IMG/VR virus record: IMGVR_UViG_2548876963_000010
DNA from: a virus
Lineage: Duplodnaviria; Heunggongvirae; Uroviricota; Caudoviricetes
Direction: 5' to 3' (one strand)
Length of the DNA stretch: 35,198 bases
The position numbers were made by a program, and so were the translations under genes. Shown here piece after piece: positions 1-34,667 of this stretch; within the stretch, counting starts at the first letter, position 1, and every line of letters begins with the position of its first letter. Below the pieces are notes generated by a model. The model made no database searches and was not told the origin of the DNA. It worked only from the letters and a program-made list of their open reading frames with translations.

Positions 1-1200
1 ATGCTGACCGATACCAAGCTGAAAAACCTCAAAGCGCGAGAAAAACTTTATAAAGTTGCAGACCGTGATGGGCTGTACGTAACCGTATCTCCCAAGGGAT
101 TGGTGACGTTTCGCTATGACTATCGAATCAATGGTCGTCGTGAAACGTTAACCATTGGCCGCTATGGTGACGGTATTTCTCTGGCGCAGGCGCGTGAAAA
201 ATTAGTAGAAGCCAAAAAACGTGTGAATGCAGGAATATCGCCCGCTGTAGAGAAGCGTGACGGTAAAACAAAGCGAAAAGAAGAAAAGACACTCCACGAT
301 TTTACCGTCAGCTACATGAAACACACCCGGCTGGCGGACAGCACAAGGGCGATGAAACAAAGCATTATCGACAGAGACATCACGCCGGTATGGGGTCGCA
401 AGCTGCTGTCAGAGATAACCCCCTCTCTCCTGCGTGAGTATTGCGACAAGATTAAAGCGCGTGGTGCGCCAGCGACGGCGATTCAGGTTCGCAATATCGT
501 TAGTGCGGTATTTAAGTTCGCCGCACTTCACGGCGACTATTACCCCAATCCTGCCGAAGAGGTTTTACCGGCTTCAATTGCGACATTCGAAGCGCGCGAC
601 AGGGCACTCAAGCCAGAGGAGATAGGCTGGTTTTTCAATCAGCTTGAACAAACGGGTACATTACCCACCATCAAGTTGGCCATTAAATTGGTTTTATTAA
701 CGATGGTGCGTAAAGGCGAATTGCTTAACGCGCCGTGGAGCGAGATTAATTTTAATGCCTGCCTTTGGGCGATTGACGCCAGCCGGATGAAGGGGTCACG
801 AGATCATAATGTTTACCTGTCCCGGCAGGCGCAGGACATTCTGATTGCCCTGAAAATGTGCGCAGGAAGCAGTGATTGGGTTTTACCTTCATGCAATCAG
901 TCGTCGCATAAGACCATGTCGGCGGCGACCTTAAACCGGGTCATTAATCTTACGGTTAAGCAGGCGCAGGAACGGGGGATCAGGCTGGCGTCGTTTTCCG
1001 TTCACGATATGCGCCGAACGGCCTCGACGTTATTACATGAGGCTGGGTTTAATTCCGACTGGATAGAAAAGTGTCTCGCGCACGAGGAAAGAAGCGTCAG
1101 AGCCGTTTATAACAAAGCGGAATACGCAGAACAGCGCCGCGACATGTTGCAGCAATGGGCGGATATGATTGATGGATGGATCAAGCAATACCGCCCGTAA
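1..1200 (+). CDS. int: Tyrosine site-specific integrase, P4-type
   Basis: 399 aa ORF starting at window position 1; N-terminal arm-binding-like region (GLYVTVSPKGLVTFRYDYRINGRRETLTIG) and C-terminal catalytic region with HDMRRT...LAHEERSVRAVYNKAEY (R, H-x-x-R, Tyr nucleophile). Confidence 0.9.
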   Translation: MLTDTKLKNLKAREKLYKVADRDGLYVTVSPKGLVTFRYDYRINGRRETLTIGRYGDGISLAQAREKLVEAKKRVNAGISPAVEKRDGKTKRKEEKTLHDFTVSYMKHTRLADSTRAMKQSIIDRDITPVWGRKLLSEITPSLLREYCDKIKARGAPATAIQVRNIVSAVFKFAALHGDYYPNPAEEVLPASIATFEARDRALKPEEIGWFFNQLEQTGTLPTIKLAIKLVLLTMVRKGELLNAPWSEINFNACLWAIDASRMKGSRDHNVYLSRQAQDILIALKMCAGSSDWVLPSCNQSSHKTMSAATLNRVINLTVKQAQERGIRLASFSVHDMRRTASTLLHEAGFNSDWIEKCLAHEERSVRAVYNKAEYAEQRRDMLQQWADMIDGWIKQYRP

Positions 1201-1828: not shown

Positions 1829-4483
1829 TTATCGTTGAAAAACCCAACACTTCACCGTCGCCGGGCGGCGCGGTGCGGCAGGGTAACGGCGGTTAAATTC
1901 AGCGTTGATGCCGCTGTTAACCGTTCTGACTTCAATAAACTTGTGGGTACGGCTGGTTTTTAGCACTCGCTTCAAATCGCTGATCGGCGGGATCTGCTGG
2001 CGGCGCTCGGTAGCCAGTTGAATAAAGTGGTTAAGGTTAACGGCGATAAGCTGTTCATCGCGCGAGTGGTTGAGCTGTGGTTCGTCGTCGCCATCGAGGA
2101 AGTCGAAAATATCCCAGAACTCCTGCACCAGAGGATGGTCGGCGCTGATGGCCTGTTGGCGCTCCAGACTGAGGCGGATAAACATTTCTCTGGTCGCCTG
2201 TAGCTGCTCTTCCGTGACCGGAATAACCAGCGCCAGCGCGTCGAGCAACGCCATAAGCTGGGCGTGGTTTTTAATGATGCGGATATGGCGAATATCTGGG
2301 TGGGAGTGAAGCTGCTGCTCATATAGCGGGATCTGCCGGTTAACGCACCCCAGCACGGCCTGTTCTGCCAGCGCTGCTTTCAGCATAAAGCCAGAAAGCT
2401 GTTCCACCGGCAGGCGTTCGAGCTGCTCGGCGGCGACCTTGGTCTGGGTATTCTGACCGCTGCGGTCGGTGTACAGGTGAATAATACGTTCCAGCACCGG
2501 GTTAGAGGCGCTGACGTCGGCGTTTTGCGCAATTACAATCGCGCCCCGGAACGGCGGTTCATAGGTCTCGTTACCGCTGTTACGCAGACCGCGAGAACGT
2601 ACCGACCGCCCGTTGTAGGCGGTTTTCAGCTCTTCCCAATCAAAGCCGCGCTGTTTTGCACCCTCCTGATTACGGTCACCCTCGATCAGCACTACCGGCA
2701 TATTCGCCACCTGCGCAAAGTTGCGCGCGCGGGCGGCCAGCGTTGATTTAGACGGATCGAAACCTTCATAGTCGCGTCGGCCCAACAGTTTCCAGAGGAA
2801 CTCTATCAGCGTGGTTTTACCGCTGCCGGGTTCGCCGACGATTTCCAGAAACGGAAAGCTCTTATGCTTGTCGCGGATCTGTTCGGCAAACATCGTCCCA
2901 AACCAGAACGCCAGCGCCACAAACCCCTTTGCGCCAAACGCCTGCCAGAGTAGCTGGGGCCACTGGCTGTCCATCTGTTTTAAATTGTCGTTCAGCGTCA
3001 GGCTGACCGACTGGTTCAGGCTTTTAAGGCTGAGTTTGCCCATGTCGAAGAAGTCTTCTTCGTTGAGTGCGTACAGCCGACCATCGCGAACGGCCAGATC
3101 GTTGAACACGTAAGCGCGGTATTCTTTGCTATAGCCGATAAAATCGGTGGTCTGGACGGTTTTGATTTTGGGAAGTTGCTTGAGCAGCAGCTTATCTAAC
3201 TGCTGACTAGTGCCAGTAAAGATGCCGCCCTGTGCGATATGCAGCAGGCGCTTTTTGAATTCTGAGCCGCTGGAAAGTTGGGAGCCGGTGAAGGTGTTTT
3301 TTATCGGCGGCGTGTCGTCCGGGAAGTTAATGCGAAAGTAATACCAGCTTTCGTCGGTGATGGTGTTGGCCTGATAGTAGAGGGCGGTCGGGTAGCAGTT
3401 GGCGATCTCCACCACGGCGGACGACTCTTTCAGCGCCTTCTGTTTCAGCTCTTCTTCGCTCAGGTCGTCATTAGAGAATGAGATACTTTCATGCACCCGC
3501 ATATAGCGGTCAATATCCAGCTTGAACCAGAACAGGCGGCTGTCAAACTCGAAGTGGAACTCTTTACGCTCTGTCTGTTCGTGCATCAGCAGGGCTTTGG
3601 CGGCGGGAGAGGTGGCGATCAGCAGAGAGCCGTAGTAGTGGTATTTCTTCACTAGCTCTGGGTTAAGCCGGTCGCGCTGGTGCAAATCGTTCCAGTCCAG
3701 CTTGCTGCGGGAATGCGGCGTCTGTGCGGCGGCTGCGCTCCAGCCTTCGTCCCGGCTGCGCTTTACCCATCGCCGGGTATAGCTCATGCCCGCCTTGTCG
3801 TTATCCAGCGCCCAGACCAGTAAAGGGCGCTTTTTATCCACGAACAGAGCGGCCAGTTGACTTAACGCCTGCGCCGGATAGTTGTTGCAGGTCATCAGGG
3901 AAACGGCGGCGATGCCGTGGTGATGCAAGGCTATGGCGTCAAAAATGCCTTCAACCAGCCAGATCTCCTGCTGTTCTTCCAGCTTCAGCGTTGGCAATTG
4001 CCACCATAGCCCGCTGTAAGCGCCGTGAAAGTTGGCTTTGCGATCGCCGAAACGCTGTGGGCGGTCAACGATTCGCTCCCACCACACGCCGTCAGCCAGC
4101 GGGAAACGCACGGTGGCCGAGCCGATATCGCGCCGTGCGTCGTAGTAGTTCTCTTGAGCGTAACAGTCACGGATCAGCGAAAGGTCAAAGCCGCGCATCT
4201 CGCGCAGGTAGGCATCGGCGGCGGCCTGTGGGTTTTCCGGGGTTGGGGGATATCTGTCTGACCAGCTTTCAAATAGATCCGGGTACACCTCTTTGATATG
4301 GATTTCGGCATTGCATTTATTCAGGCGACCGCAGCGCAGTACCCACGGGCTGATGGCGTTGGTGTACAGCTCTTTTTTCTGGCAGTCCGGGCAGACGCCC
4401 TGCCGCAGCCAGTCGCCCTGTTCTTTAAAGGAAAAATCGGCTAGCAGTCGCCGCGTAATTTCCTGATGAAGTTGTGGTTGCAT
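1829..4483 (-). CDS. Primase-helicase replication protein (P4 alpha-like)
   Basis: 884 aa; N-terminal zinc-finger CPDCQKK...CGRLNKC, Toprim-like acidic motifs (WLVEGIFDAIAL, ALDNDKAG), C-terminal Walker A GEPGSGKT and Walker B-like VVLIEGD. Confidence 0.85.
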   Translation of the reverse strand: MQPQLHQEITRRLLADFSFKEQGDWLRQGVCPDCQKKELYTNAISPWVLRCGRLNKCNAEIHIKEVYPDLFESWSDRYPPTPENPQAAADAYLREMRGFDLSLIRDCYAQENYYDARRDIGSATVRFPLADGVWWERIVDRPQRFGDRKANFHGAYSGLWWQLPTLKLEEQQEIWLVEGIFDAIALHHHGIAAVSLMTCNNYPAQALSQLAALFVDKKRPLLVWALDNDKAGMSYTRRWVKRSRDEGWSAAAAQTPHSRSKLDWNDLHQRDRLNPELVKKYHYYGSLLIATSPAAKALLMHEQTERKEFHFEFDSRLFWFKLDIDRYMRVHESISFSNDDLSEEELKQKALKESSAVVEIANCYPTALYYQANTITDESWYYFRINFPDDTPPIKNTFTGSQLSSGSEFKKRLLHIAQGGIFTGTSQQLDKLLLKQLPKIKTVQTTDFIGYSKEYRAYVFNDLAVRDGRLYALNEEDFFDMGKLSLKSLNQSVSLTLNDNLKQMDSQWPQLLWQAFGAKGFVALAFWFGTMFAEQIRDKHKSFPFLEIVGEPGSGKTTLIEFLWKLLGRRDYEGFDPSKSTLAARARNFAQVANMPVVLIEGDRNQEGAKQRGFDWEELKTAYNGRSVRSRGLRNSGNETYEPPFRGAIVIAQNADVSASNPVLERIIHLYTDRSGQNTQTKVAAEQLERLPVEQLSGFMLKAALAEQAVLGCVNRQIPLYEQQLHSHPDIRHIRIIKNHAQLMALLDALALVIPVTEEQLQATREMFIRLSLERQQAISADHPLVQEFWDIFDFLDGDDEPQLNHSRDEQLIAVNLNHFIQLATERRQQIPPISDLKRVLKTSRTHKFIEVRTVNSGINAEFNRRYPAAPRRPATVKCWVFQR

Positions 4484-5504: not shown

Positions 5505-6077
5505 ATGAAGTTGAATAATCTGGTTGCTCTTTACAGGAACATGACAGAGCAAAAATTGGATAGGGTTAAATTCCCATACAGACACAATAATTTACATTTT
5601 GATGTATTTTTCTTTATTGATGGAAAACCGTTTGAGCTTCTTTTCGGAGCATTAGGCGCTAATCTTTGCTTTCGTCTAAAAGTCGAGAAGGGATTCGTCA
5701 TAAATCCTAATCTGGGAAGTGAGACTTATAAAGAATTATGCAAGGCTCTAGGTTTGAAATATGACCCTGCCAATCCATTTAGAACAAGTAAGTTTTTTGA
5801 AGATTTTGATGGGAAAATCCCTCCATCGGTTACTGTTAAGAATAAGGCAAAATATACTGATATTGCTGTGCATGTCAGGGATGTTGAAGAAGCAGACAGA
5901 ATATATTTCTGTGGATGGAAAAACAACAATGAAGAAAAGAGTCATGTTACTGAAGATAATTTAAAGAAAACGAAAGAGTTTTTAGGGTATCAGGCTTTTC
6001 TTGTTTGTAAGGAAAAGAATATTAGCAGTAGATGGACTGATTTAGAAAATAAAGCGAAAGATTTTTATTTACCATAG
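5505..6077 (+). CDS. Hypothetical protein (190 aa), first gene of AT-rich cargo cassette
   Basis: ORF with GGAGG RBS 8 nt upstream; markedly AT-rich codon usage compared with flanking phage genes; no motif recognised. Confidence 0.6.
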   Translation: MKLNNLVALYRNMTEQKLDRVKFPYRHNNLHFDVFFFIDGKPFELLFGALGANLCFRLKVEKGFVINPNLGSETYKELCKALGLKYDPANPFRTSKFFEDFDGKIPPSVTVKNKAKYTDIAVHVRDVEEADRIYFCGWKNNNEEKSHVTEDNLKKTKEFLGYQAFLVCKEKNISSRWTDLENKAKDFYLP

Positions 6078-6091
6078 GATTGTGAGGTTAT

Positions 6092-7240
6092 ATGTCTGAT
6101 ATTTCATTAGGGTGCGTGGTTGTTCATAGGTTGATAAAAGAGCAACATAAAGATTTCGATCACTCAAAACCATATAGTCGCCGTGATACGGTTCTTGACC
6201 GAAATAATGAAATCGTAATTAAACTAGTGTCCAGTATAGCCGCATTGTATGGTAAAAAATCTAATAGCTCGCATTATGGTATATTTAATTTAGATGAAAC
6301 ACGTAGGGGGCCTTTTCCAGCGGCATTTGATAAATATCGGAATGATACATCCAAGAAGTTAGACGATGAATTGTTTATAGGATTATCAAAAAATGTTATG
6401 CATCAGTTATATATTGAGGCAAAGGATCGACCTGCTGCATCAGGAGGATTACTTCTTTTTGCTGATTATATCAGTAAATCCGTGCGTTACTTTCTTATTG
6501 CAATGATTAAGCAAAAGGAAGGTATAGTTATTAGTGATAAATTAGAACCAAAGGAGTTAGAGCATCTTGATCTGGCAAAACTAAATCAGGCGGCACGAAT
6601 AAACTATGATTTGTATGATAAATATATTTCCGCTGATGAGAATGAAAGACAGGATGTTAATTATTTAAGTTTTGTTAGTCCCAGTTCTAACCAGACAACT
6701 TCAGGGTATTTCATTACTGCCTTAGGTTGTGATAAAGGTAATACATCAACTAAAGCTACGAGTAATTTAATTAATGAATCTTTTAACTTCTTCAGAAATC
6801 ATCAAGAATTAAAGGATAATGCCCGTAAATTTAAAAATGAAATTATTGAGTATTTATTCGATTGTTCTGAGAATAACATTTCAGCTAAGCTCTCTGTTGT
6901 TAGTGAGATGGCAGCGAAGCATATGGTTAATTTAGAAGATGACATTAAAGATAAATTGTCAGAAGAATTATATGCTCATTTGAATAGTGAAAGTATTCGT
7001 GTGCCTGTGGAATTTAGGGTAAGCAAATCAGTAGTTAAGAAAAACAGAAATATTAAATATACAAGTGATAATGTTAATTTTGAGTTTAAATCTAGTTTAC
7101 TAGGCAATACGCTTGATAATGAGATATGCTATAATAAGAAAACTGGACATTTAACTTTTACTCGGATTACTCCTGAGAAAAAAAGTGAAATAGCTCAATT
7201 GCTTGATGAGTTAATAAAAGAAAGAAATAGCGAAAAATAA
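6092..7240 (+). CDS. YejK/NdpA-like (nucleoid-associated protein family) protein, 382 aa
   Basis: N-terminal VVVHRLIKEQHK (cf. E. coli YejK ALHQLIKRDEQ, recalled from memory), SIAALYGKKSNSSHYGIF (cf. ELHRVYSAKNKAYGLF) and ASGGLLLFADYISKSVRYFLIAMI (cf. [24 protein letters not shown]); RBS GTGAGG upstream. Confidence 0.6.
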   Translation: MSDISLGCVVVHRLIKEQHKDFDHSKPYSRRDTVLDRNNEIVIKLVSSIAALYGKKSNSSHYGIFNLDETRRGPFPAAFDKYRNDTSKKLDDELFIGLSKNVMHQLYIEAKDRPAASGGLLLFADYISKSVRYFLIAMIKQKEGIVISDKLEPKELEHLDLAKLNQAARINYDLYDKYISADENERQDVNYLSFVSPSSNQTTSGYFITALGCDKGNTSTKATSNLINESFNFFRNHQELKDNARKFKNEIIEYLFDCSENNISAKLSVVSEMAAKHMVNLEDDIKDKLSEELYAHLNSESIRVPVEFRVSKSVVKKNRNIKYTSDNVNFEFKSSLLGNTLDNEICYNKKTGHLTFTRITPEKKSEIAQLLDELIKERNSEK

Positions 7241-7251
7241 GGTTGCTTAAT

Positions 7252-8508
7252 ATGTCATGTTTTGAAACGGTTGTTGAGCTTTTCAGATATGTAGGGCGTC
7301 CTAAATTTGATGCTATTAATAATCGTTTTTCAGCAACTATTTCTTATGATGCTCATATATATGAACTCTTAGTTTCTTTGCAACCTCATACCGCGTGGGG
7401 AGAAATTGAAGAGATTGTCATTGATGATGTGGATATAGATGTTGATGATAGCCTTCCCGCTAAAGGAACATCAATAACACTGACAATCTCTATATCAACT
7501 GGAGCCAGTGAGTCATTTTTTATCGATATTAAAGATCTAATTCAAAAGTCTCCGATGTTAAATAGAGGTATTTTAAGAAAGTCTTTTTACTTGGTTGAGG
7601 AAGATTTTTATTTTAATGAAGGAATGGTTGAGGGATTAGCAAAAATACCAGAACTATCTGTTTTAAAAAATCTTTGTGATTTTATTTTATGTCTATCAAA
7701 AGTTGCACACTACAGCAATAGTAAAAGTGATGATGTATGCCATAAGTTAGTTTTCTTGAAAAATACTAATGCTAAGTCATTACCTTTAATTATTGAAACT
7801 AATGTTGATTATTCACTTCTTTTAACAGGTATTAAGGATTTAAAAATCATCGAATCTTTTTCTGATGAAAAAAAAGCTATAACGGATGATAATTATTTTG
7901 AGCGAAAAGGGATTTTCATTAATACGGTGGTCGATTTTCTTGAATCAATCGATGTAAAGAAACAGTTTCATTTTTTATTCTGTGAGTGGGATGAATTTCT
8001 AAAACTATACCATAATAACCTCGGTGTATATCTTAGTGGTTTTTCATTTCATAAAGTAAGAAAGGAAGTGGCAGAGGCAGAAGCTAATTTAGCTGAGCGT
8101 TTTTCAAAAATAATGTCAGACATGATAGCTAAGCTTTTAGGTATTCCTGTTTCTTTGGTTGCTACTTTTGGCATGATAAAATTAAATACCCTGCCGGAAA
8201 TGTTAGTGGTTTTTTTAGGTGTATTGCTCACGTCGATAATTATGTTTTTTATTGTAAGAAGTCAATACACACAGTTTAGGATGATTTGTGATGCTAAAGA
8301 TATTATATTTTCCCCATTAGTGAAAAAATCTGTAGGTTATACAGAAGATTTGAAAAAATTAGTATGCAATGCAAAGGATAATTTAGACAAAAATCAGGTC
8401 ATGTTAAATCGTTACCTTCTTTTCTTTCAATGCTTATGCTGGATTCCGACAGCCTTAGGTGGTGGAATGATCTTAATGGCTATTATGGTTCATTTAGGAT
8501 TACTATAA
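7252..8508 (+). CDS. Hypothetical protein (418 aa) with C-terminal transmembrane helices
   Basis: ATG at 7252 (listed ORF starts at a TTG at 7243); hydrophobic stretches IPVSLVATFGMIKL...MLVVFLGVLLTSIIMFFIV and YLLFFQCLCWIPTALGGGMILMAIMVHLGLL at the C-terminus; AT-rich. Confidence 0.6.
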   Translation: MSCFETVVELFRYVGRPKFDAINNRFSATISYDAHIYELLVSLQPHTAWGEIEEIVIDDVDIDVDDSLPAKGTSITLTISISTGASESFFIDIKDLIQKSPMLNRGILRKSFYLVEEDFYFNEGMVEGLAKIPELSVLKNLCDFILCLSKVAHYSNSKSDDVCHKLVFLKNTNAKSLPLIIETNVDYSLLLTGIKDLKIIESFSDEKKAITDDNYFERKGIFINTVVDFLESIDVKKQFHFLFCEWDEFLKLYHNNLGVYLSGFSFHKVRKEVAEAEANLAERFSKIMSDMIAKLLGIPVSLVATFGMIKLNTLPEMLVVFLGVLLTSIIMFFIVRSQYTQFRMICDAKDIIFSPLVKKSVGYTEDLKKLVCNAKDNLDKNQVMLNRYLLFFQCLCWIPTALGGGMILMAIMVHLGLL

Positions 8509-15129: not shown

Positions 15130-15888
15130 TTAATTCAGGATAATCAGTTCTGATGTGGCGCTGGCTGGCTTTCCGCCTACGGTATAGCGAATCCCTACCG
15201 TTGAGAATGTCAGGCCGTGGAAGATATCGCGCATTTCCGGGATGTCATTAACCGAGATAATCATCCGGCCCTGCATGGTGCGCGCCAGCTCTGCCATTCG
15301 CTGGTACTGCTCAAGGCCAAATGGTACGCCGTAGCCTTCGGTTTTCCAGTATGGAGGGTCGCAGTAGAACAGGGTATGCGGGCGGTCATAGCGGCGAATA
15401 CATTCGGCCCAGTCCAGATTTTCAATACAGACGCGCGCCAGCCGCAGATGGGCGGCGGATAAATCCTCTTCCATACGCAGCAGGTTCAGGCGCGGCGGTG
15501 AGGTGGTGGCGGTACCGAATGTGCGACTTTCCACTTTGCCGCCGAATGCCAGCTTTTGCAGATAGTAGAAGCGCGCCGCGCGCTGGATATCGGTCAGCGT
15601 TTCTTCCGGGGTGATCTGGAGCCAGCGGTACATTTCGCGGCTGACCAGCGACCATTTAAACTGGCGGACAAACTCTTCTAAATGGTGCTGGAGTACGCGG
15701 TAGAGGTTGGTAACGTCGCCGTTGATATCATTCAGCACCTCGGCCTGTGCGGGCTGTTTCATAAAGAACAACGCCGCCGCCCCGCAGAACGGTTCAACGT
15801 AGCAGCGGTGTTTGGGAAACAGCGGCAGAATGTGTTTTGCCAGCCTGCGCTTACCGCCGATCCACGGAATAATGGGTAACGTATTCAT
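15130..15888 (-). CDS. dam: DNA adenine methyltransferase (Dam/D12 class N6-adenine MTase), orphan
   Basis: 252 aa; SAM-binding motif EPFCGAAALFF and catalytic DPPY in FYCDPPYW; no adjacent restriction endonuclease gene. Confidence 0.9.
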   Translation of the reverse strand: MNTLPIIPWIGGKRRLAKHILPLFPKHRCYVEPFCGAAALFFMKQPAQAEVLNDINGDVTNLYRVLQHHLEEFVRQFKWSLVSREMYRWLQITPEETLTDIQRAARFYYLQKLAFGGKVESRTFGTATTSPPRLNLLRMEEDLSAAHLRLARVCIENLDWAECIRRYDRPHTLFYCDPPYWKTEGYGVPFGLEQYQRMAELARTMQGRMIISVNDIPEMRDIFHGLTFSTVGIRYTVGGKPASATSELIILN

Positions 15889-26014: not shown

Positions 26015-26115
26015 TTACGGAGATATCAAGCAGCGCTAAGAAGTTAGGATTATTTGTTCAGCCCAGATTAGTCGATATGCACTGATTAACTTAAACATTG
26101 TGTGTAGGAGGTGTT

Positions 26116-26769
26116 GTGGATATTGAATTTTTTCTTAAAGAGCGCACAAGATTCGTTACTTATTTCTATGAAACGGCTGCTGCACCATTTGTTAACATCA
26201 TGAATGATATTGAGAATGAAGTGGAACCTTATATTCAGCCGTATGGTGAGAGTGATGAACCAGCTTTTTTAGATGAATGGTTAGATGCAAAGTCGGGATT
26301 AGAAACCTGTGGGCACCATGCATTATCGATGCTTTCGTCTTCTCTTCAGTTGTACCTGAAGGCGTGGGTAGATCGCTTAGGATATCATAGCGTGAAATCT
26401 GATATAAATTTCAAGAAGGGTTGGTTTAATGGCTATCGTGAAATTTTCAACAAAATTGAGTTGGAAATGGCAAAATGTCCTGCAAATTTGGAAATAATTG
26501 AACAAATTCCCTTGGTGAGAAATCGTGTCCAGCATCCTGAGGAACTTACCTCAATTAATATTTCTCACTCAAAAAATGACTTGGAAAAATATCCTCGCCC
26601 ATACTTTATTCAGGAGTGTGAGCTACTTTTGGCTTCCGAACAGGAAGAAAAATCGTGGTTATTCCCACCTACAATATCCCCGACTAAAGAGAAAATATTC
26701 GAAGCTATCAGAAATGTTGAAATGCTGTGCTCTTGGTTAGAGTCTGAGTATTGGTCGGCTCTTGACTAA
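26116..26769 (+). CDS. Hypothetical protein (217 aa) with R-x4-H motif, possible HEPN-domain protein
   Basis: GTG start at 26116 with AGGAGG 6 nt upstream (ORF track lists 26098); AT-rich; motif VRNRVQHPEE (R-x4-H). Confidence 0.55.
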   Translation: MDIEFFLKERTRFVTYFYETAAAPFVNIMNDIENEVEPYIQPYGESDEPAFLDEWLDAKSGLETCGHHALSMLSSSLQLYLKAWVDRLGYHSVKSDINFKKGWFNGYREIFNKIELEMAKCPANLEIIEQIPLVRNRVQHPEELTSINISHSKNDLEKYPRPYFIQECELLLASEQEEKSWLFPPTISPTKEKIFEAIRNVEMLCSWLESEYWSALD

Positions 26770-26858
26770 ATGTAGAATAGAGTAAGTCAGCGTCAAATGA
26801 AAACAGCCCGACGAATCGGGCTATTATGGCTATCAGGCAAACACTACCTTCAAACTCA

Positions 26859-27095
26859 TTATGCCGCCTCAATACCCGCTCTGGTTAACATATAGTGGCC
26901 CCAGTGGGTTTTCTTCAGATAACCGGCCAGTTCCATCTGTGTCACAATAAATTCAGCGTTAACTATTTCTATATCTGCGTAGTCGGCCAGATCGCGCAGC
27001 GGCCATGTGCTGCGAACGCCGACGCTAACTATGGTATCTCTGATGCGGCGAGCGGTATCGGTCATTGGGCGGGTTCTGGCTGCCTGAATAGTCAT
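26859..27095 (-). CDS. Hypothetical small protein (78 aa), possible winged-helix DNA binding
   Basis: ATG at 27095 with GGGGAA upstream (listed ORF begins at a GTG at 27134); not part of canonical P2 L-X interval. Confidence 0.45.
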   Translation of the reverse strand: MTIQAARTRPMTDTARRIRDTIVSVGVRSTWPLRDLADYADIEIVNAEFIVTQMELAGYLKKTHWGHYMLTRAGIEAA

Positions 27096-27210
27096 GGTAT
27101 TTTCCCCTGTAAGTTCTTTCGTTGGGTCAGACACTAACTCTGGTGGGGAAGGGGCATCCAGCGTTCAGATGAGGCGATACGGTGATGCGCATCGCATATC
27201 CGTACTCTTT

Positions 27211-27763: not shown

Positions 27764-28417
27764 TCACTCGGTAGGCTGACTGTTGCGAATTTGTCGCTCC
27801 AGTTGCTCAATCAGTTTTTTCACGCCGACGTTCTCATCCAGTTGTAGCGCGCGCTGGAACTGCGCCAGCGCCTCCTGCGGCTGGCTTTCGCTGTGTGCCA
27901 GCCCCAATGCCTTGTGCAGGCGGGCGCGAACCTGATCCGGCATGTCTTGGGAGGCTAACAGTCCGGCAAAGGCCAGCAGGCTGTCCAGCGCCACAAAGGT
28001 ACCGGCGGCAAGCTGTTTCAGAGCGGTGTCGGCGACCTCTTCAGCCACCATGCAGGCGGTCTGCCGTTGGTACTGATCCGGCGTTACCCAGCTGTGTTTC
28101 AGGGCGTGTTCCGCCATGGGGTAGGCAGCGGGAAAGTCGCCGGTATCCAGCGTCCAGAGCAGCACCGTCATAAACACATCGTCCTGCTGTTGGCTGTCGG
28201 CAGCCAGAACGCCGCTTATCCACGGCTGGTAATCGGGCAGCAGTTCACCCTTAACCTCGATTTTGCGTTCAATGGACTGGATCGCTTTCAGGCGGCGTTT
28301 ATCGGTTGCCAGCTTTGCCAGCATCAGTTCATAGCCGCTGGCGTAGGTCTGGTTTTCCTGTTGATTTACGGCCTGCGCCTGATGGCGCAGCAGGTGGCGG
28401 CGGGCAGGCGTCATCAT
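27764..28417 (-). CDS. M: Terminase small (endonuclease) subunit (P2 gpM-like)
   Basis: 217 aa; position after N; 4-bp overlap with N. Confidence 0.8.
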   Translation of the reverse strand: MMTPARRHLLRHQAQAVNQQENQTYASGYELMLAKLATDKRRLKAIQSIERKIEVKGELLPDYQPWISGVLAADSQQQDDVFMTVLLWTLDTGDFPAAYPMAEHALKHSWVTPDQYQRQTACMVAEEVADTALKQLAAGTFVALDSLLAFAGLLASQDMPDQVRARLHKALGLAHSESQPQEALAQFQRALQLDENVGVKKLIEQLERQIRNSQPTE

Positions 28418-29433
28418 GCGTCTTTGTCCTCAAACTTGATGTTTTCAAACAGGCAACCGCAGCCGAAGTCTTCCACCACAAAGGCATCGTTGGAAGACTC
28501 GAAGTTCTCTACCCGGTCACGTTTGGGGTTATCAATAATGGCGCGGCGGCGGGTGCCTTTCTGGACATAGATAGACAGGTTACTGAAGGCGGTGACCAGA
28601 ATGGTGTTGCGCGGGAAACCCGGCACGCGCACGGCAGGGCGACCGCCGATGGTTTTCTGGCTGACCAGAATCTGCCCCGCCAGTTTTTCGCTGTTCTCAT
28701 TGTGCTGGTTGAGGATCGGGAAGTATTTGTCGTGCAGGACGCCACGGCCACAAATGGCGACCAGATCTGCGCCGTCGACATGCCATTCGTCAATCAGGTT
28801 TTCTTCGCCGTCATTGACCATGGCGTCCAGATTCTCATAGTCGCCGCCTTTGCCAATGATGATTTTGCCGGAACCTTCCACACCTTCGTTCATGACGCGT
28901 TCCGGGGCGTGGTCGCGGTACTGCTGCAGCCAGCCTTTGTTAACGTCCTGCAGAAGGGGGTAACGCTGGAAGTCGGTCTGGGCGGCAACGAGGATACCGT
29001 TGAAGCCAATCAGGATGCGGTCTAATCCCTGTCGCCGGGTGATGCTGTCGCGCACGCGGATCTGAAAATCCGGGTGTACGGCCCATGCGTCCAGTTTGGC
29101 GTATTTCAGCGCGGTGTCGTAGTTGGTTTTTTCGCAGCGGTAACGGTTAGTCGTCATTGACGTGGGGTCTACGGGTTCACGCTCACGCTGGCTGGTATCG
29201 GTACGGCTGGCCGTCGGGCGATCAATGCCGATACCGACTTTTTCTCCTTCCTGATCCACCACTTCATGGACGTTGATTTTGGTCAGGAACTCCACGGATG
29301 CCTGAATTTTGGTTTCCAGCGTCTGCTGTACGGAAGGTTCTACCGTGAATTCGACGGCGGCGCTCTGGACGCCGGACAGCCCGGCGACGGTTTCAACGTA
29401 AACGTTGTATTTTAAGCGGGTTTCGTTACGCAT
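28414..29433 (-). CDS. N: Major capsid protein (P2 gpN-like)
   Basis: 339 aa; position between scaffold and terminase small subunit. Confidence 0.9.
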   Translation of the reverse strand: MRNETRLKYNVYVETVAGLSGVQSAAVEFTVEPSVQQTLETKIQASVEFLTKINVHEVVDQEGEKVGIGIDRPTASRTDTSQREREPVDPTSMTTNRYRCEKTNYDTALKYAKLDAWAVHPDFQIRVRDSITRRQGLDRILIGFNGILVAAQTDFQRYPLLQDVNKGWLQQYRDHAPERVMNEGVEGSGKIIIGKGGDYENLDAMVNDGEENLIDEWHVDGADLVAICGRGVLHDKYFPILNQHNENSEKLAGQILVSQKTIGGRPAVRVPGFPRNTILVTAFSNLSIYVQKGTRRRAIIDNPKRDRVENFESSNDAFVVEDFGCGCLFENIKFEDKDA

Positions 29434-32210: not shown

Positions 32211-33187
32211 ATAACGCAATGGCTTTCACCTTCGGTGAACCCGAAGCCCTGCTGGACAGGCGGGAAATACTGAACTATCTGGAGTGCGTGGACTTTGGTA
32301 AATGGTATGCGCCGCCGGTGGATTTTAACTCGCTGGCGCTGTCGTTCCGCGCTTCGGCGCATCATACCAGCCCGATCTGCGTGAAGCGCAATGTGCTGGT
32401 TGGTACCTTCATTCCTCATCCGTTGCTAACCCGGCAGGCGTTCAGCCGCCTTGCGCTGGACTATCTGGTGTTCGGCAACGCTTATCTGGAGCGGCAGGAT
32501 AACCGGCTGGGCCAGCCGTTAACGCTGGTGCCTGCGCTGGCGAAGTATGTCCGCCGCGGTAAGGCGCTGGAGAACTATTTCTTTGTTCAGCCCGGTCGTG
32601 TGGATCATGAGTTTGCGCCGGGAAGTATCGGCCACCTGCTGGAGCCGGATATCAATCAGGAAATCTACGGCCTGCCGGAATATCTCTCTGCGTTGAACGC
32701 GGCATGGCTGGATAACTCCGCCACGTTGTTTCGTCGCCGTTACTACAAGAACGGCAGTCATGCCGGGTTCATTCTCTACCTGAGCGACCCGGCTCATAAT
32801 GAGGCGGATATTGAAGCACTGCAAGTGGCGCTGGCGAACAGCCGTGGCCCCGGCAACTTCCGCAATTTGCTGATGTATTTGCCGAACGGCAAGCCGGACA
32901 GCGTAAAGGTGATCCCGATTGGCGAGGTGGCGGCGAAAGATAACTTCTCCGATATCAAAAGCGTCAGCCGTGACGACCAGCTAGCCGCGCACCGGGTACC
33001 ACCTGCGCTCATGGGCGTGGTGCCGAGTAACGCCGGTGGCTTTGGTGATGCCATCAAAGCGGCGAAGGTATTCAACTGCAATGAGATCGAGCCGCTGCAG
33101 GAACGCTTTAAGGAACTGAACGACTGGTTGGGGCTGGAGGTTATTCGCTTCAAAAAGTACCGCCTTGCCGACGACGATTCAGAGTAA
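32207..33187 (+). CDS. Q: Portal protein (P2 gpQ-like)
   Basis: 326 aa; translationally coupled to P. Confidence 0.9.
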   Translation: MNNAMAFTFGEPEALLDRREILNYLECVDFGKWYAPPVDFNSLALSFRASAHHTSPICVKRNVLVGTFIPHPLLTRQAFSRLALDYLVFGNAYLERQDNRLGQPLTLVPALAKYVRRGKALENYFFVQPGRVDHEFAPGSIGHLLEPDINQEIYGLPEYLSALNAAWLDNSATLFRRRYYKNGSHAGFILYLSDPAHNEADIEALQVALANSRGPGNFRNLLMYLPNGKPDSVKVIPIGEVAAKDNFSDIKSVSRDDQLAAHRVPPALMGVVPSNAGGFGDAIKAAKVFNCNEIEPLQERFKELNDWLGLEVIRFKKYRLADDDSE

Positions 33188-33233
33188 CCCCACCAATGAC
33201 CAACTCTCCGTCAGCGCCACCACGCGCCATTCA

Positions 33234-33256
33234 GCCCGCTTCCTGCGGGTTTTTTT
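33234..33256 (+). terminator. Rho-independent terminator after Q
   Basis: CCCGC-ttcct-GCGGG followed by TTTTTTT. Confidence 0.6.
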
Positions 33257-33292
33257 ACGCCTTCTCACCGCCAGAATCTCCAGCCAGCACCG

Positions 33293-33311
33293 CCAGCGCG
33301 CGGTTGTGACC
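33293..33311. other. Candidate cos site (cohesive-end sequence)
   Basis: Reverse complement reads GGCGTGGCGGGGTCACAAC; first 12 nt match the GGCG(A/T)GGCGGGG start of the P2/186 cohesive ends as I recall them. Confidence 0.4.
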
Positions 33312-33510
33312 CCGCCACGCCTGCGCAGTAAATAGATCGCTTTTTTTGCACTGGTGCGTAAGCGTCGGAGCGGGCCATAACGGGAGGGCGTGGTCGGGTT
33401 GCGGGTGCAGCAGAATCATGCGGATTTATGCGCCCTGTGTATGCGCCAGAGACGATCGGGAGGACAATGCCACGATCCTTTCGGTATTTTTGGATCGCCT
33501 GTCGGGAAAA

Positions 33511-33786
33511 GGTAACCTCAGTAATTGGCAGTAAAAATAATGCTTATTCTATTGTTTATAAAAGAGAAATTTGGTTACCCATAAAAGGTAATCTGAGGTA
33601 ACCCAAAAGGTAACCTGTTTTATATTTTCATATAAATCATAATGTTACCAATTAGAAGAGATCACTATTATAAAAGGTAACCTGATTACCCTTTGGTTAC
33701 CAGAAGATTACCTTTCTCTGTTTTTGAAAAATCCTTTTTATTCATTAAGTTATTTTGATTTTTCGTTGCAGGTTACGAAGGTTACC
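33511..33786. repeat. Cluster of GGTAACC/GGTTACC heptamer repeats (consensus AAAGGTAACC) in both orientations
   Basis: Exact heptamers at 33511, 33573, 33597, 33609, 33676, 33694, 33780 plus variants (GGTAATC, GATTACC, GTTACCA, GGTTACG) in ~280 bp of AT-rich non-coding DNA. Confidence 0.8.
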
Positions 33787-34056
33787 TTTTTCCGAAGCCC
33801 CCACGGACTTTGGTATATATAGATAGGTTAAAAAGTAGCCATTATGTTTGCCTGCTATTTACTTCCCATTCTTCCACTGGCCAGCATGTTAATATGCCCG
33901 GTAATGATAACTCGTTGCCGTTGGGTTACTTTCTTCTGTGGACGGTAAAACTGACGGTAAATTGGGTAATGTGTCTCTATTTAGACTATGAAAATCAAGT
34001 AATTAAAGTGATTGTATATAATCGAGTGGGAATGATTTGACCCTGCACTATGAATG

Positions 34057-34089
34057 AACAAAACCCTCTGTTACTACAGAGGGTTTTTT
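34057..34089. terminator. Bidirectional rho-independent terminator
   Basis: AACAAAA-CCCTCTG-ttacta-CAGAGGG-TTTTTT; downstream of minus-strand gene ending at 34128. Confidence 0.75.
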
Positions 34090-34127
34090 ATACTCACGAA
34101 TCATAGGATTGAAGTTACTAACATCGA

Positions 34128-34667
34128 TTAATTAAACCAGCTGTCCGATTTGTTCTCTTCTGCTTTGCCCACGCTTTTCATCAGATCTCGACCGCCCTCA
34201 GTCATATTCCTGTTTGCGTCAGCTTCAGATTGCACCACATCGGTTTGCGCAGCTTTGTGCTTCAGTTCCTGATCGATAAATTCGTTTTCTCGCTTAACGC
34301 GGGCTTCTTCTTTCGCCAGCGCCAGTTTTTGCTTCTGAATCTCTAAGCTACGTAGCTCATCTTCATAACTTTGATCGCGTTTTTTGTCCGCAGTGGCTTC
34401 GGCGTCCAGTTTATCCTGACGAGCTTTCTTATTCGCTGCTGCCGTTGCCGCTCTTTTATTAGCCGCGGCCTGGGCGTTTGCGCGACGTTGCTTCTCTTGC
34501 TGGATTTCCCTGTTGCGCTCCGCGACCCATTCGTCATGCTGCCTTTGCTCTTCATTTTTACCTTGCTGTTCCGCTTCTGCGACAGCCGAGAGTTGATCCT
34601 GCAATGATGAGGCGATAGCCGGATAGCTTAAGGAGGCTAAGATGGCGCAAAGAAAAACTTTCTTCAT
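34128..34667 (-). CDS. Secreted Lys/Ala/Glu-rich coiled-coil protein (likely host chromosomal)
   Basis: 179 aa with N-terminal signal peptide (MKKVFLCAILASLSYPAIASS); outside prophage. Confidence 0.65.
   Translation of the reverse strand: MKKVFLCAILASLSYPAIASSLQDQLSAVAEAEQQGKNEEQRQHDEWVAERNREIQQEKQRRANAQAAANKRAATAAANKKARQDKLDAEATADKKRDQSYEDELRSLEIQKQKLALAKEEARVKRENEFIDQELKHKAAQTDVVQSEADANRNMTEGGRDLMKSVGKAEENKSDSWFN

Follow-up and report, generated by a model that had tools for sequence, protein, structure and literature searches.

A heptamer array between cos and the attachment site of a phiCTX-like prophage as a candidate iteron origin of replication

At one end of a prophage of P2 morphology, the DNA between the predicted cos site and the host junction carries a dense cluster of GGTAACC heptamers, and the question raised by this locus is which protein would read them. 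A preliminary description had offered three roles for the cluster: binding sites for integrase or excisionase, recognition sites for the terminase small subunit, or origin iterons for the phage primase-helicase. The locus was analysed in its window (the whole 35,198-bp stretch of viral DNA) and compared with the corresponding regions of related phages. The third role was supported and the first two were disfavoured. The array at 33505-33795 is probably an iteron origin of replication, with about 11 iterons in four groups.

The array and its surroundings

The window represents a phiCTX-like prophage whose insertion site is the 3' end of guaA and whose P2-type structural genes were recognised by annotation and Pfam. 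The portal gene ends at 33187, and host DNA (yfgI, yfgH) begins at about 34014-34024. Both the insertion site and the identity of GAGTGGGAATGATTTG as the att core were deduced from the duplication of the guaA end by GAGTGGGAATGATTTG, together with the position of guaA directly upstream of int in E. coli CEC15, whose prophage is 97% identical. A tRNA scan of the window found none, the att site being the guaA 3' end and not a tRNA gene. Three cis modules lie side by side at this end of the prophage: cos with its flanking repeats, the heptamer array and the attP arm (Table 1). The array lies 190 bp to the right of cos and 240 bp to the left of the att core. The preliminary description had therefore placed it correctly, between cos and the host junction, in a cos-proximal position that abuts int in the circular form. 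In the circular phage, the primase gene is followed by DUF7673, alpA, int, attP, ori and cos, so that integration puts the initiator gene and the proposed origin at opposite ends of the prophage.

Table 1. Coordinates of features in the window and of repeat arrays in related phages.
Genome	Feature	Position	Strand	Remarks
Window	Tyrosine integrase, Arm-DNA-bind_3 domain	1..1200	+	Follows att core in circular form
Window	884-aa primase-helicase, phiCTX orf37 family (PHROG 1139), proposed initiator	1829..4483	-	
Window	Predicted 19-nt cos overhang, GGCGTGGCGGGGTCACAAC on minus strand	33303..33321	-	Matches Smp131 and phiCTX cohesive ends; DNA matches to Pseudomonas phage genome ends
Window	YATGCGS x3, cos flank, probable terminase-recognition part of cos	33417..33446		Distinct from iterons
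Window	Whole iteron array, proposed ori	33505..33795		Four groups of AAAGGTAAYC-type sites; collinear arrays in relatives
Window	Iteron 1 (gaaaaGGTAACCtc), exact	33511..33517	+	Invariant in the four relatives
Window	Iteron group 2	33573..33615		33573(-) GGTAACC, 33587(+) GGTAATC, 33597(+) and 33609(+) GGTAACC; 10-14 bp apart
Window	Central AT-rich spacer, candidate unwinding region	33616..33675		Holds weak non-conserved copy 33643-33649 (-, GGTAACA)
Window	Iteron group 3	33676..33712		33676(+) GGTAACC, 33684(-) GGTAATC, 33695(-) GGTAACC, 33706(-) GGTAATC; 8-11 bp apart
Window	Iteron group 4	33771..33786	-	33771 CGTAACC, 33780 GGTAACC; ends in GTTACCTTTTTCCGA
Window	Two direct GACGGTAAA repeats, probable integrase arm-type sites, int-distal arm	33941..33961	+	Same repeat between guaA and int in CEC15
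Window	Exact IHF consensus AATCAAGTAATTA	33993..34005	+	Between arm sites and core
Window	attR core GAGTGGGAATGATTTG, 16 bp	34024..34039	+	Duplicates guaA 3' end
Ralstonia RSY1	Array	16-316		cos ~513
Smp131	Array	33053-33325		cos 33525
Halomonas phage 4908	Array	192-467		cos ~650
L107 (metagenomic phage contig)	Iteron GGTAATA			
L109 (metagenomic phage contig)	Iteron GGTAACA x11			
L070	Iteron AAAGGTAATATT x5			
2F_1 (skin-virome phage)	Variant iteron TTGTAACY			

Seven exact copies of GGTAACC/GGTTACC and five one-mismatch copies were counted on both strands of 33511-33786, in agreement with the earlier statement of at least seven exact heptamers plus variants, in both orientations, within ~280 bp. 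The claim that this density is beyond chance was borne out as well. In 20,000 dinucleotide-preserving shuffles of 33500-33800, the mean number of exact copies was 0.058 and the maximum was 2, versus the 7 observed; positions with no more than one mismatch numbered 12, versus 0.84 expected from the same shuffles. The background count that had been proposed as a check gave nine exact copies of GGTAACC (either strand) in the whole window, seven of which fall inside 33511-33786, with a mean of 2.84 in whole-window shuffles.

The array is AT-rich non-coding DNA, as had been described. Its GC content is 30-31%, versus ~57% in the neighbouring phage genes, and no gene was annotated by PGAP at the equivalent region of the CEC15 prophage. 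Scans of the region detected no sigma-70-like promoter, terminator or Rfam family. No exact IHF consensus lies inside the array, the sole nearby exact match being that of the att arm.

A small gene was considered as an explanation of the cluster and rejected: the ORF at 33346-33534 overlaps the first site only and has no annotation in CEC15. A known non-coding RNA was rejected likewise, with no Rfam match in the array.

The heptamer frequently occurs in the extended form AAAGGTAAYC(T), as the preliminary description had also noted. Because GGTNACC is an odd palindrome, the orientation of each iteron is set by its central base and its A-tract flank. Iterons of the left half are mostly on the plus strand (rightward) and those of the right half mostly on the minus strand (leftward). 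They fall into four groups (33511; 33573-33615; 33676-33712; 33771-33786) with AT-rich spacers of 55-60 bp between the groups and a spacing of 8-14 bp within them. Two features looked for in an iteron origin were therefore found here: a short repeat (5-8 bp) present about six times or more in a few hundred non-coding base pairs (11 conserved sites in 276 bp), and iterons that flank an AT-rich segment in opposite orientations (three spacers, GC 0.30).

Conservation of the heptamers was assessed in an alignment of the window, CEC15 and the viral contigs L084 and L087 (portals 95% and 88% identical), which were the only two useful close relatives in a portal scan of viral contigs. Among these four related prophages, 7 of 77 columns (9%) varied within sites versus 87 of 202 (43%) within spacers (Fisher p = 1.6e-8). 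Judged from this alignment, the heptamers are under selection. Most of the variant copies listed earlier held up in the comparison. The exception is the copy at 33643, in which 4 of 7 columns vary among the relatives; it is probably not a real site, and because it is not conserved, about 11 sites remain.

A conserved block at 33791-33830 adjoins the array on its right. A distant-mode DNA search with 33190-34130 against phage records matched nothing beyond host DNA and, in Pseudomonas phages, the cos core; the array is therefore too diverged for blastn.

To the right of the array, the GACGGTAAA arm sites, the IHF site and the core would make up a complete attP arm without the heptamers. In CEC15, the interval from guaA to int has 2-3 copies of GACGGTAAA, and an inverted pair of this repeat lies within the first part of int. 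To the left, the gap of ~190 bp between array and cos is filled by separate short repeats that are similar in kind to those of P2. Comparable repeats of the cos flank are TGCATAA (four copies) in RSY1, ATGCR in L109, a TGCATT-type repeat adjoining cosR in P2, and R4-R6 in phiCTX. Roles at att and at cos are thus already covered by other, separate repeats, which was counted in favour of the heptamers being an origin.

Arrays in related phages and alternative readings

GTAAY arrays in AT-rich DNA were found in eight relatives: phiCTX, RSY1, Smp131, Halomonas phage 4908, L107, L109, L070 and 2F_1. The first six are collinear with the array of the window. All eight carry an orf37-type primase that is 42-58% identical to that of the window, and they differ in integrase, att site and host. 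Irrespective of the integrase, a GTAAY array was present in every examined phage that has an orf37-type primase-helicase of at least 42% identity and for which the att-cos region is sequenced. The records of BpuM-ZY1 and L108 are without the att-cos region and were left out of the array comparison. Of 80 viral-contig loci around the primase, nearly none reach the far end of the prophage, and only L070 was informative. The L109 array is collinear with that of the window group by group and has the end motif GTTACCTTTTTCCGA in common with it, while the spacers are unrelated; GTTACCTTTTTCCGA is also found in RSY1, and nearly so in phiCTX.

Phage phiCTX is reportedly the subject of papers by Hayashi et al. 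from 1993 and Nakayama et al. from 1999. Its record (NC_003278/AB008550) lists int, R1/R2 repeats around attP, R4-R6 repeats around cos, and a 290-bp region (35100-35390) with "R3 repeats" and two IHF sites, to which no function was assigned. R3 is (A)AAGGTAAT, with ~12-16 copies in both orientations in AT-rich DNA. The array ends 176 bp from cosR, and its ends form a 45-nt inverted repeat; the layout in opposite orientations holds there too. The two phages are alike in their order (int, attP with its own arm repeats, array, ~180 bp, cos), in their core repeat (AAAGGTAAT in phiCTX, AAAGGTAAC in the window) and in having a primase-helicase of the same family (48.5% identity). They differ in the last base of the iteron, the window heptamer being an odd palindrome, and in host, integrase and att site (tRNA-Ser in phiCTX, the guaA 3' end in the window). 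The window array shares the defining traits of the R3 region, with GGTAAY-type repeats in both orientations, a position between the attP arm and the cos flank, and an orf37-type primase in the same phage. A literature search found no mapped origin or functional assignment for the phiCTX-type array.

Phages that replicate by gpA gave a different result. No GGTAAY was found within 800 bp of cos in P2, and the 186-like prophages L110 and L112, whose portals are 62-63% identical to that of the window, have the cos core and no array. L110 and L112 replicate with the gpA protein, and P2 does likewise. P2-type gpM proteins are 46-50% identical to that of the window (46-48% for those of Wphi and PSP3), versus 41% for the gpM of phiCTX. 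Because gpA phages with similar packaging genes are without an array, its presence in the genomes compared tracks the replication protein rather than those of packaging.

Pseudomonas phage phi3 resembles the window in having a homologous primase-helicase (33.5% identical) and in the arrangement of its iterons, which face both ways around an AT-rich core. The iteron is different, with 16 copies of GGAACA of which 9 are CCGGAACA, and so is the position: the array fills a 440-bp gap directly downstream of the primase gene, far from int, cos and att and more than 3 kb from the portal. As the phi3 array adjoins the primase and has a different iteron, both the location and the sequence of the array go with the primase.

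Three other readings were weighed against an origin. It is unlikely that a different DNA-binding protein, from the phage or the host, uses the array as a platform in a non-replicative role, such as that of a transcriptional silencer, a boundary or a centromere-like site. Arrays of short repeats in AT-rich DNA do serve such roles in plasmids and phages, and the conserved block at the right edge would suit one, but there are no partition genes in the prophage and no promoter-like sites in the region. The primase-helicase is the only early protein in all of the array-bearing phages and changes with the repeat sequence, whereas repressor, AlpA/Cox and cargo differ among them.

A role as an accessory packaging site, at which gpM, perhaps with IHF, would position or stimulate cos cleavage in the manner of cosB beside cosN in lambda, is quite improbable. 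The main point in its favour is distance: in seven genomes (window, phiCTX, RSY1, Smp131, Halomonas phage 4908, L107 and L109) the array lies 176-270 bp from cos, a fixed position that fits a packaging-linked function and counts against an origin. We attribute this constancy to the cos flank of P2-like phages, whose separate set of repeats intervenes. Insertions of cargo are found to one side or the other of the unit formed by array and cos and never part the two, and the depositors of phiCTX annotated IHF sites inside the array; a packaging site would be consistent with both. However, the array does not accompany homologous terminase and cos throughout, being absent from P2, L110 and L112, whose gpM or portal proteins are at least as similar to those of the window as are those of array-bearing phages and which have the same cos core, and the equivalent array of phi3 is placed beside the primase gene and away from the portal. 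Terminase small-subunit sites, as first suggested, are disfavoured on the same evidence, with the array missing from P2 and the two 186-like prophages in spite of similar packaging genes and with a separate set of repeats in the cos flank.

Evidence bearing on the integrase came from several genomes. Both attP arms carry GACGGTAAA, adjoining an IHF consensus and the core, and GGTAACC does not occupy both, none being present in the int-proximal arm, the 225-bp guaA-int interval of CEC15. GTAAY iterons accompany unrelated integrases, with arm repeats of GTTCCCA in phiCTX and CCCGACTAAATC in L109, and the integrase that accompanies the L070 array has an identity of only 24% over 153 residues. The Smp131 array is ~2.2 kb from attP, with 1.9 kb of cargo in the interval. 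The array and the conserved block on its right are kept in L087, in which the sequence is unrelated from ~33850 on; as the array was kept beside a non-homologous att arm, a recombination junction separates the two. It is therefore highly improbable that the heptamers are integrase arm-type or AlpA-like excisionase sites extending the P arm of attP, even though the array falls on the same side of cos as att, at 240-510 bp from the core, an arm-binding domain is present in the integrase and GGTAA is common to GGTAACC and GACGGTAAA, for the repeat did not change with the integrase or att module.

The primase-helicase as candidate initiator

With the array read as an origin of replication, the proposed initiator is the 884-aa primase-helicase encoded at the other end of the prophage. 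It is 58% identical to its homologue in RSY1 and 45% to that in Smp131. More than 1,900 homologues were found, in Pseudomonas, Ralstonia, the Burkholderia group, Stenotrophomonas, Vibrio, Halomonas and enterobacteria. Residues 1-300 comprise a DnaG-like zinc finger and a Toprim domain, and residues ~500-700 a P-loop ATPase with its Walker A motif around G550-K556. Structure prediction was needed for the C-terminus because sequence searches of Pfam, NCBIfam, PHROGs and the PDB recognise the Toprim/DnaG part only.

A full-length AlphaFold model was obtained from an 81-sequence alignment (pLDDT 88). It predicts a beta-rich middle domain between the primase and the ATPase and, over residues ~700-884, a helical bundle followed by a winged-helix-like C-terminal domain. 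The C-terminal domain was modelled with a pLDDT of 94 and has an end unit of the order strand-helix-helix-strand-helix-strand. The best Foldseek matches in the PDB were Cch of SCCmec (5dgk, E = 1.7e-15) and the Rep of SaPIbov1 (8tch, E = 1.6e-12). Further top matches included PriRep1 with dsDNA (7pds), PriRep of SaPI5 (7ola) and, at the N-terminus, DnaG RNA-polymerase domains. The predicted fold is that of a DnaG-type primase fused to a self-loading initiator helicase of the SaPI-Rep/SCCmec-Cch type. Judged by the predicted fold, the array-bearing element has an initiator gene of its own, whose product combines a helicase ATPase with a C-terminal DNA-binding domain.

Iteron binding, melting and origin activity are what we infer for this pair of protein and array. 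After infection or induction, the primase-helicase would bind the iterons through its winged-helix-like C-terminal domain and assemble as hexamers on both halves of the array. The bound protein would melt an AT-rich spacer and load itself as the replicative helicase, and its fused N-terminal DnaG-type primase would make the first primers.

If the C-terminal domain reads the iterons, the two might be expected to change together. Two phages with an orf37-type primase and no GTAAY array have other repeats, TGTGACGG in six copies at 28384-28658 in ESSI2_ev239 and CTGACAG in ten copies at 813-1082 in UFJF_PfPro, each of which is a candidate origin only. The ESSI2_ev239 primase is 52% identical to that of the window overall and 33% over the last 64 residues, a stretch over which GTAAY phages with an intact annotated C-terminus are 43-61% identical. 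A motif, [TE]S[RK]xxKF, at residues ~843-849 was found in 9 of 9 GTAAY phages and in 0 of 3 others, in a small set of 12 genomes that are phylogenetically non-independent. The window protein has TSRTHKF at 843-849, and the three phages with other iterons have NGNERRF, DCRAHHC and RSETYPF. Covariation of the iteron sequence with the C-terminal motif in these non-independent genomes is suggestive. Against it, head genes are also more divergent in the three phages whose iterons differ.

Comparison with known origins

SaPI Reps read their origins through a C-terminal winged-helix domain, which recognises 6-12 iterons of five or six nucleotides. The two flanks of an AT-rich centre carry about half of these iterons each, in opposite directions; no loader is needed for the Reps to load themselves, and in SaPI5 the initiator-helicase is fused to a primase (PMC9371898). 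The window array resembles a SaPI ori in this anatomy, with iterons of opposing directions to either side of AT-rich DNA. There are several differences. In SaPIs the ori is immediately downstream of rep, whereas in the circular form of the phage the array is ~2.3 kb away from the initiator gene with int and attP between them. In the prophage the two are ~30 kb apart, at opposite ends, and this separation counts against the array being an origin. Unlike the SaPI and Cch proteins, the primase part of the window protein is of the DnaG/Toprim type, and HMMER detected no similarity of the protein to PDB sequences. SaPIs are satellites, whereas the element in the window is a complete phage of P2 morphology.

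The alpha protein of P4, reportedly studied by Ziegelin et al. in 1993 and by Yeo et al. in 2002 (PDB 1KA8), is said to combine primase, helicase and origin binder, with its C-terminal domain as the reader of TGTTCACC octamers. Two iteron regions, ori and crr, lie apart from each other in P4, and the P4 ori is remote from the alpha gene. An ori next to its initiator gene is therefore typical of SaPIs and not universal. P4 is like the window in having a multifunctional primase-helicase, P2-type cos packaging and a P4-type integrase. It is unlike the window in that the window holds one array only, and no sequence relationship of the window protein to alpha was detectable. The origin-binding domain of alpha was not among the top structural matches.

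Iteron origins read by initiator-helicases are already well known, and no new principle is proposed; the repeats themselves are known from the phiCTX deposit. New here are the enterobacterial array and a concrete candidate origin for the widespread phiCTX-like group. These phages are common prophages with P2-type particles, in which a large primase-helicase replaces the A protein of P2. The candidate origin comprises ~290 bp and 11 iterons, a motif near the C-terminus of its initiator, within the C-terminal domain, is a candidate determinant of specificity, and the predicted structure would link this primase family to the self-loading helicases of SaPI and SCCmec. The array marks a cis element to keep or remove in phiCTX-derived vectors and engineered phages. 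Its delimitation also separates the adjacent att arm, ori and cos flank, which are otherwise confusable when prophage ends are annotated.

A further idea, to which we give little credence, is that attP, array and cos form a conserved and never-interrupted hub, at which the bound primase-helicase may couple the start of replication to packaging or excision. If so, the ori would lie at the prophage-host junction, where firing in situ would amplify cos and the neighbouring host DNA, and integration would deliberately part the initiator gene from its origin.

Conserved sequences around the iteron array

The GTAAY iteron array, the proposed replication origin, was bordered on both sides by conserved sequence (see the table of repeats and sites). 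The block ATTTTTGGATCGC, immediately left of the first iteron (33454-33500), was kept in all four close relatives. The phage also encodes a Dam-type methylase (15130-15888), and three GATC sites lie within 33454-33500. On the right, the CTTTTTCCGAAGCCCCCACGGACTTTGG-TATATATAGATAGGT block was kept even in L087, a closely related viral contig, despite its unrelated att arm; a simple promoter scan of this block (33787-33845) found no promoter.

Short repeats adjacent to cos, comparable to YATGCGS in the window, were also found in P2 (TGCATT-type), Ralstonia phage RSY1 (TGCATAA, four copies) and a metagenomic phage contig with a GTAAY array (L109). Repeats of this type likely represent the terminase-binding part of cos, and are likely the reason that the spacing between array and cos stays constant.

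Repeats and sites in the window and in related elements
Feature	Element	Position	Location
YATGCGS repeats (3)	Window	33417-33446	cos flank
Inverted repeat CGATCC...GGATCG with 3 GATC sites	Window	33454-33500	Left of first iteron
CTTTTTCCGAAGCCCCCACGGACTTTGG-TATATATAGATAGGT block	Window	33787-33845	Directly right of array
GACGGTAAA direct repeats (2)	Window	33941-33961	int-distal arm
Exact IHF consensus AATCAAGTAATTA	Window	33993-34005	Flanked by arm repeats and att core
GACGGTAAA exact inverted pair	Window	259-267(+), 301-309(-)	Within int coding sequence, first 310 bp
GACGGTAAA copies (2-3)	CEC15 prophage (L001)	4348-4420	guaA-int interval
TGTGACGG array, dense (6)	ESSI2_ev239 (L097)	28384-28658	
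CTGACAG array, dense (10)	UFJF_PfPro (L103)	813-1082	

The att arm

The element GACGGTAAA is probably an integrase arm-type repeat, and the inverted pair inside int might provide extra arm sites or serve autoregulation. The IHF site listed is one of only two exact consensus matches in the entire window.

Arrays, cargo and annotation in related phages

The GTAAY array was absent from ESSI2_ev239 and UFJF_PfPro, both of which carry the same primase family; the dense arrays listed for these two phages may be their respective origins. The iteron TGTTCCGG of Pseudomonas phage phi3 (L102, 7402-7715) is similar to the P4 type I iteron, TGTTCACC, a likeness that could be due to chance.

In the viral contig L070 (17330-22685), the integrase, cargo of defence type and a tRNA 3' fragment were followed by an array of five AAAGGTAATATT copies, beyond which lay further cargo of this type (AAA_21/RloB) as well as a gpV gene. 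This region has the appearance of a second phiCTX-like element, tandem or degraded, with the att site in common.

Cargo differed between the window (5505-8508 and the 26098-27134 region) and the CEC15 prophage. Between its early genes and its tail genes, the window carried DUF6037, a nucleoid-associated protein of the NA37 type and a protein of 421 aa, whereas the CEC15 prophage carried a gene for AbiTii in the V-S interval, plus a RelE/ParE pair.

In Smp131 (L099, 27600-28210), the conserved C-terminus of the primase (...ESKRHKF...VKCWVFQK) was found in a different frame from the annotated CDS, which appears to be frameshifted close to its 3' end.
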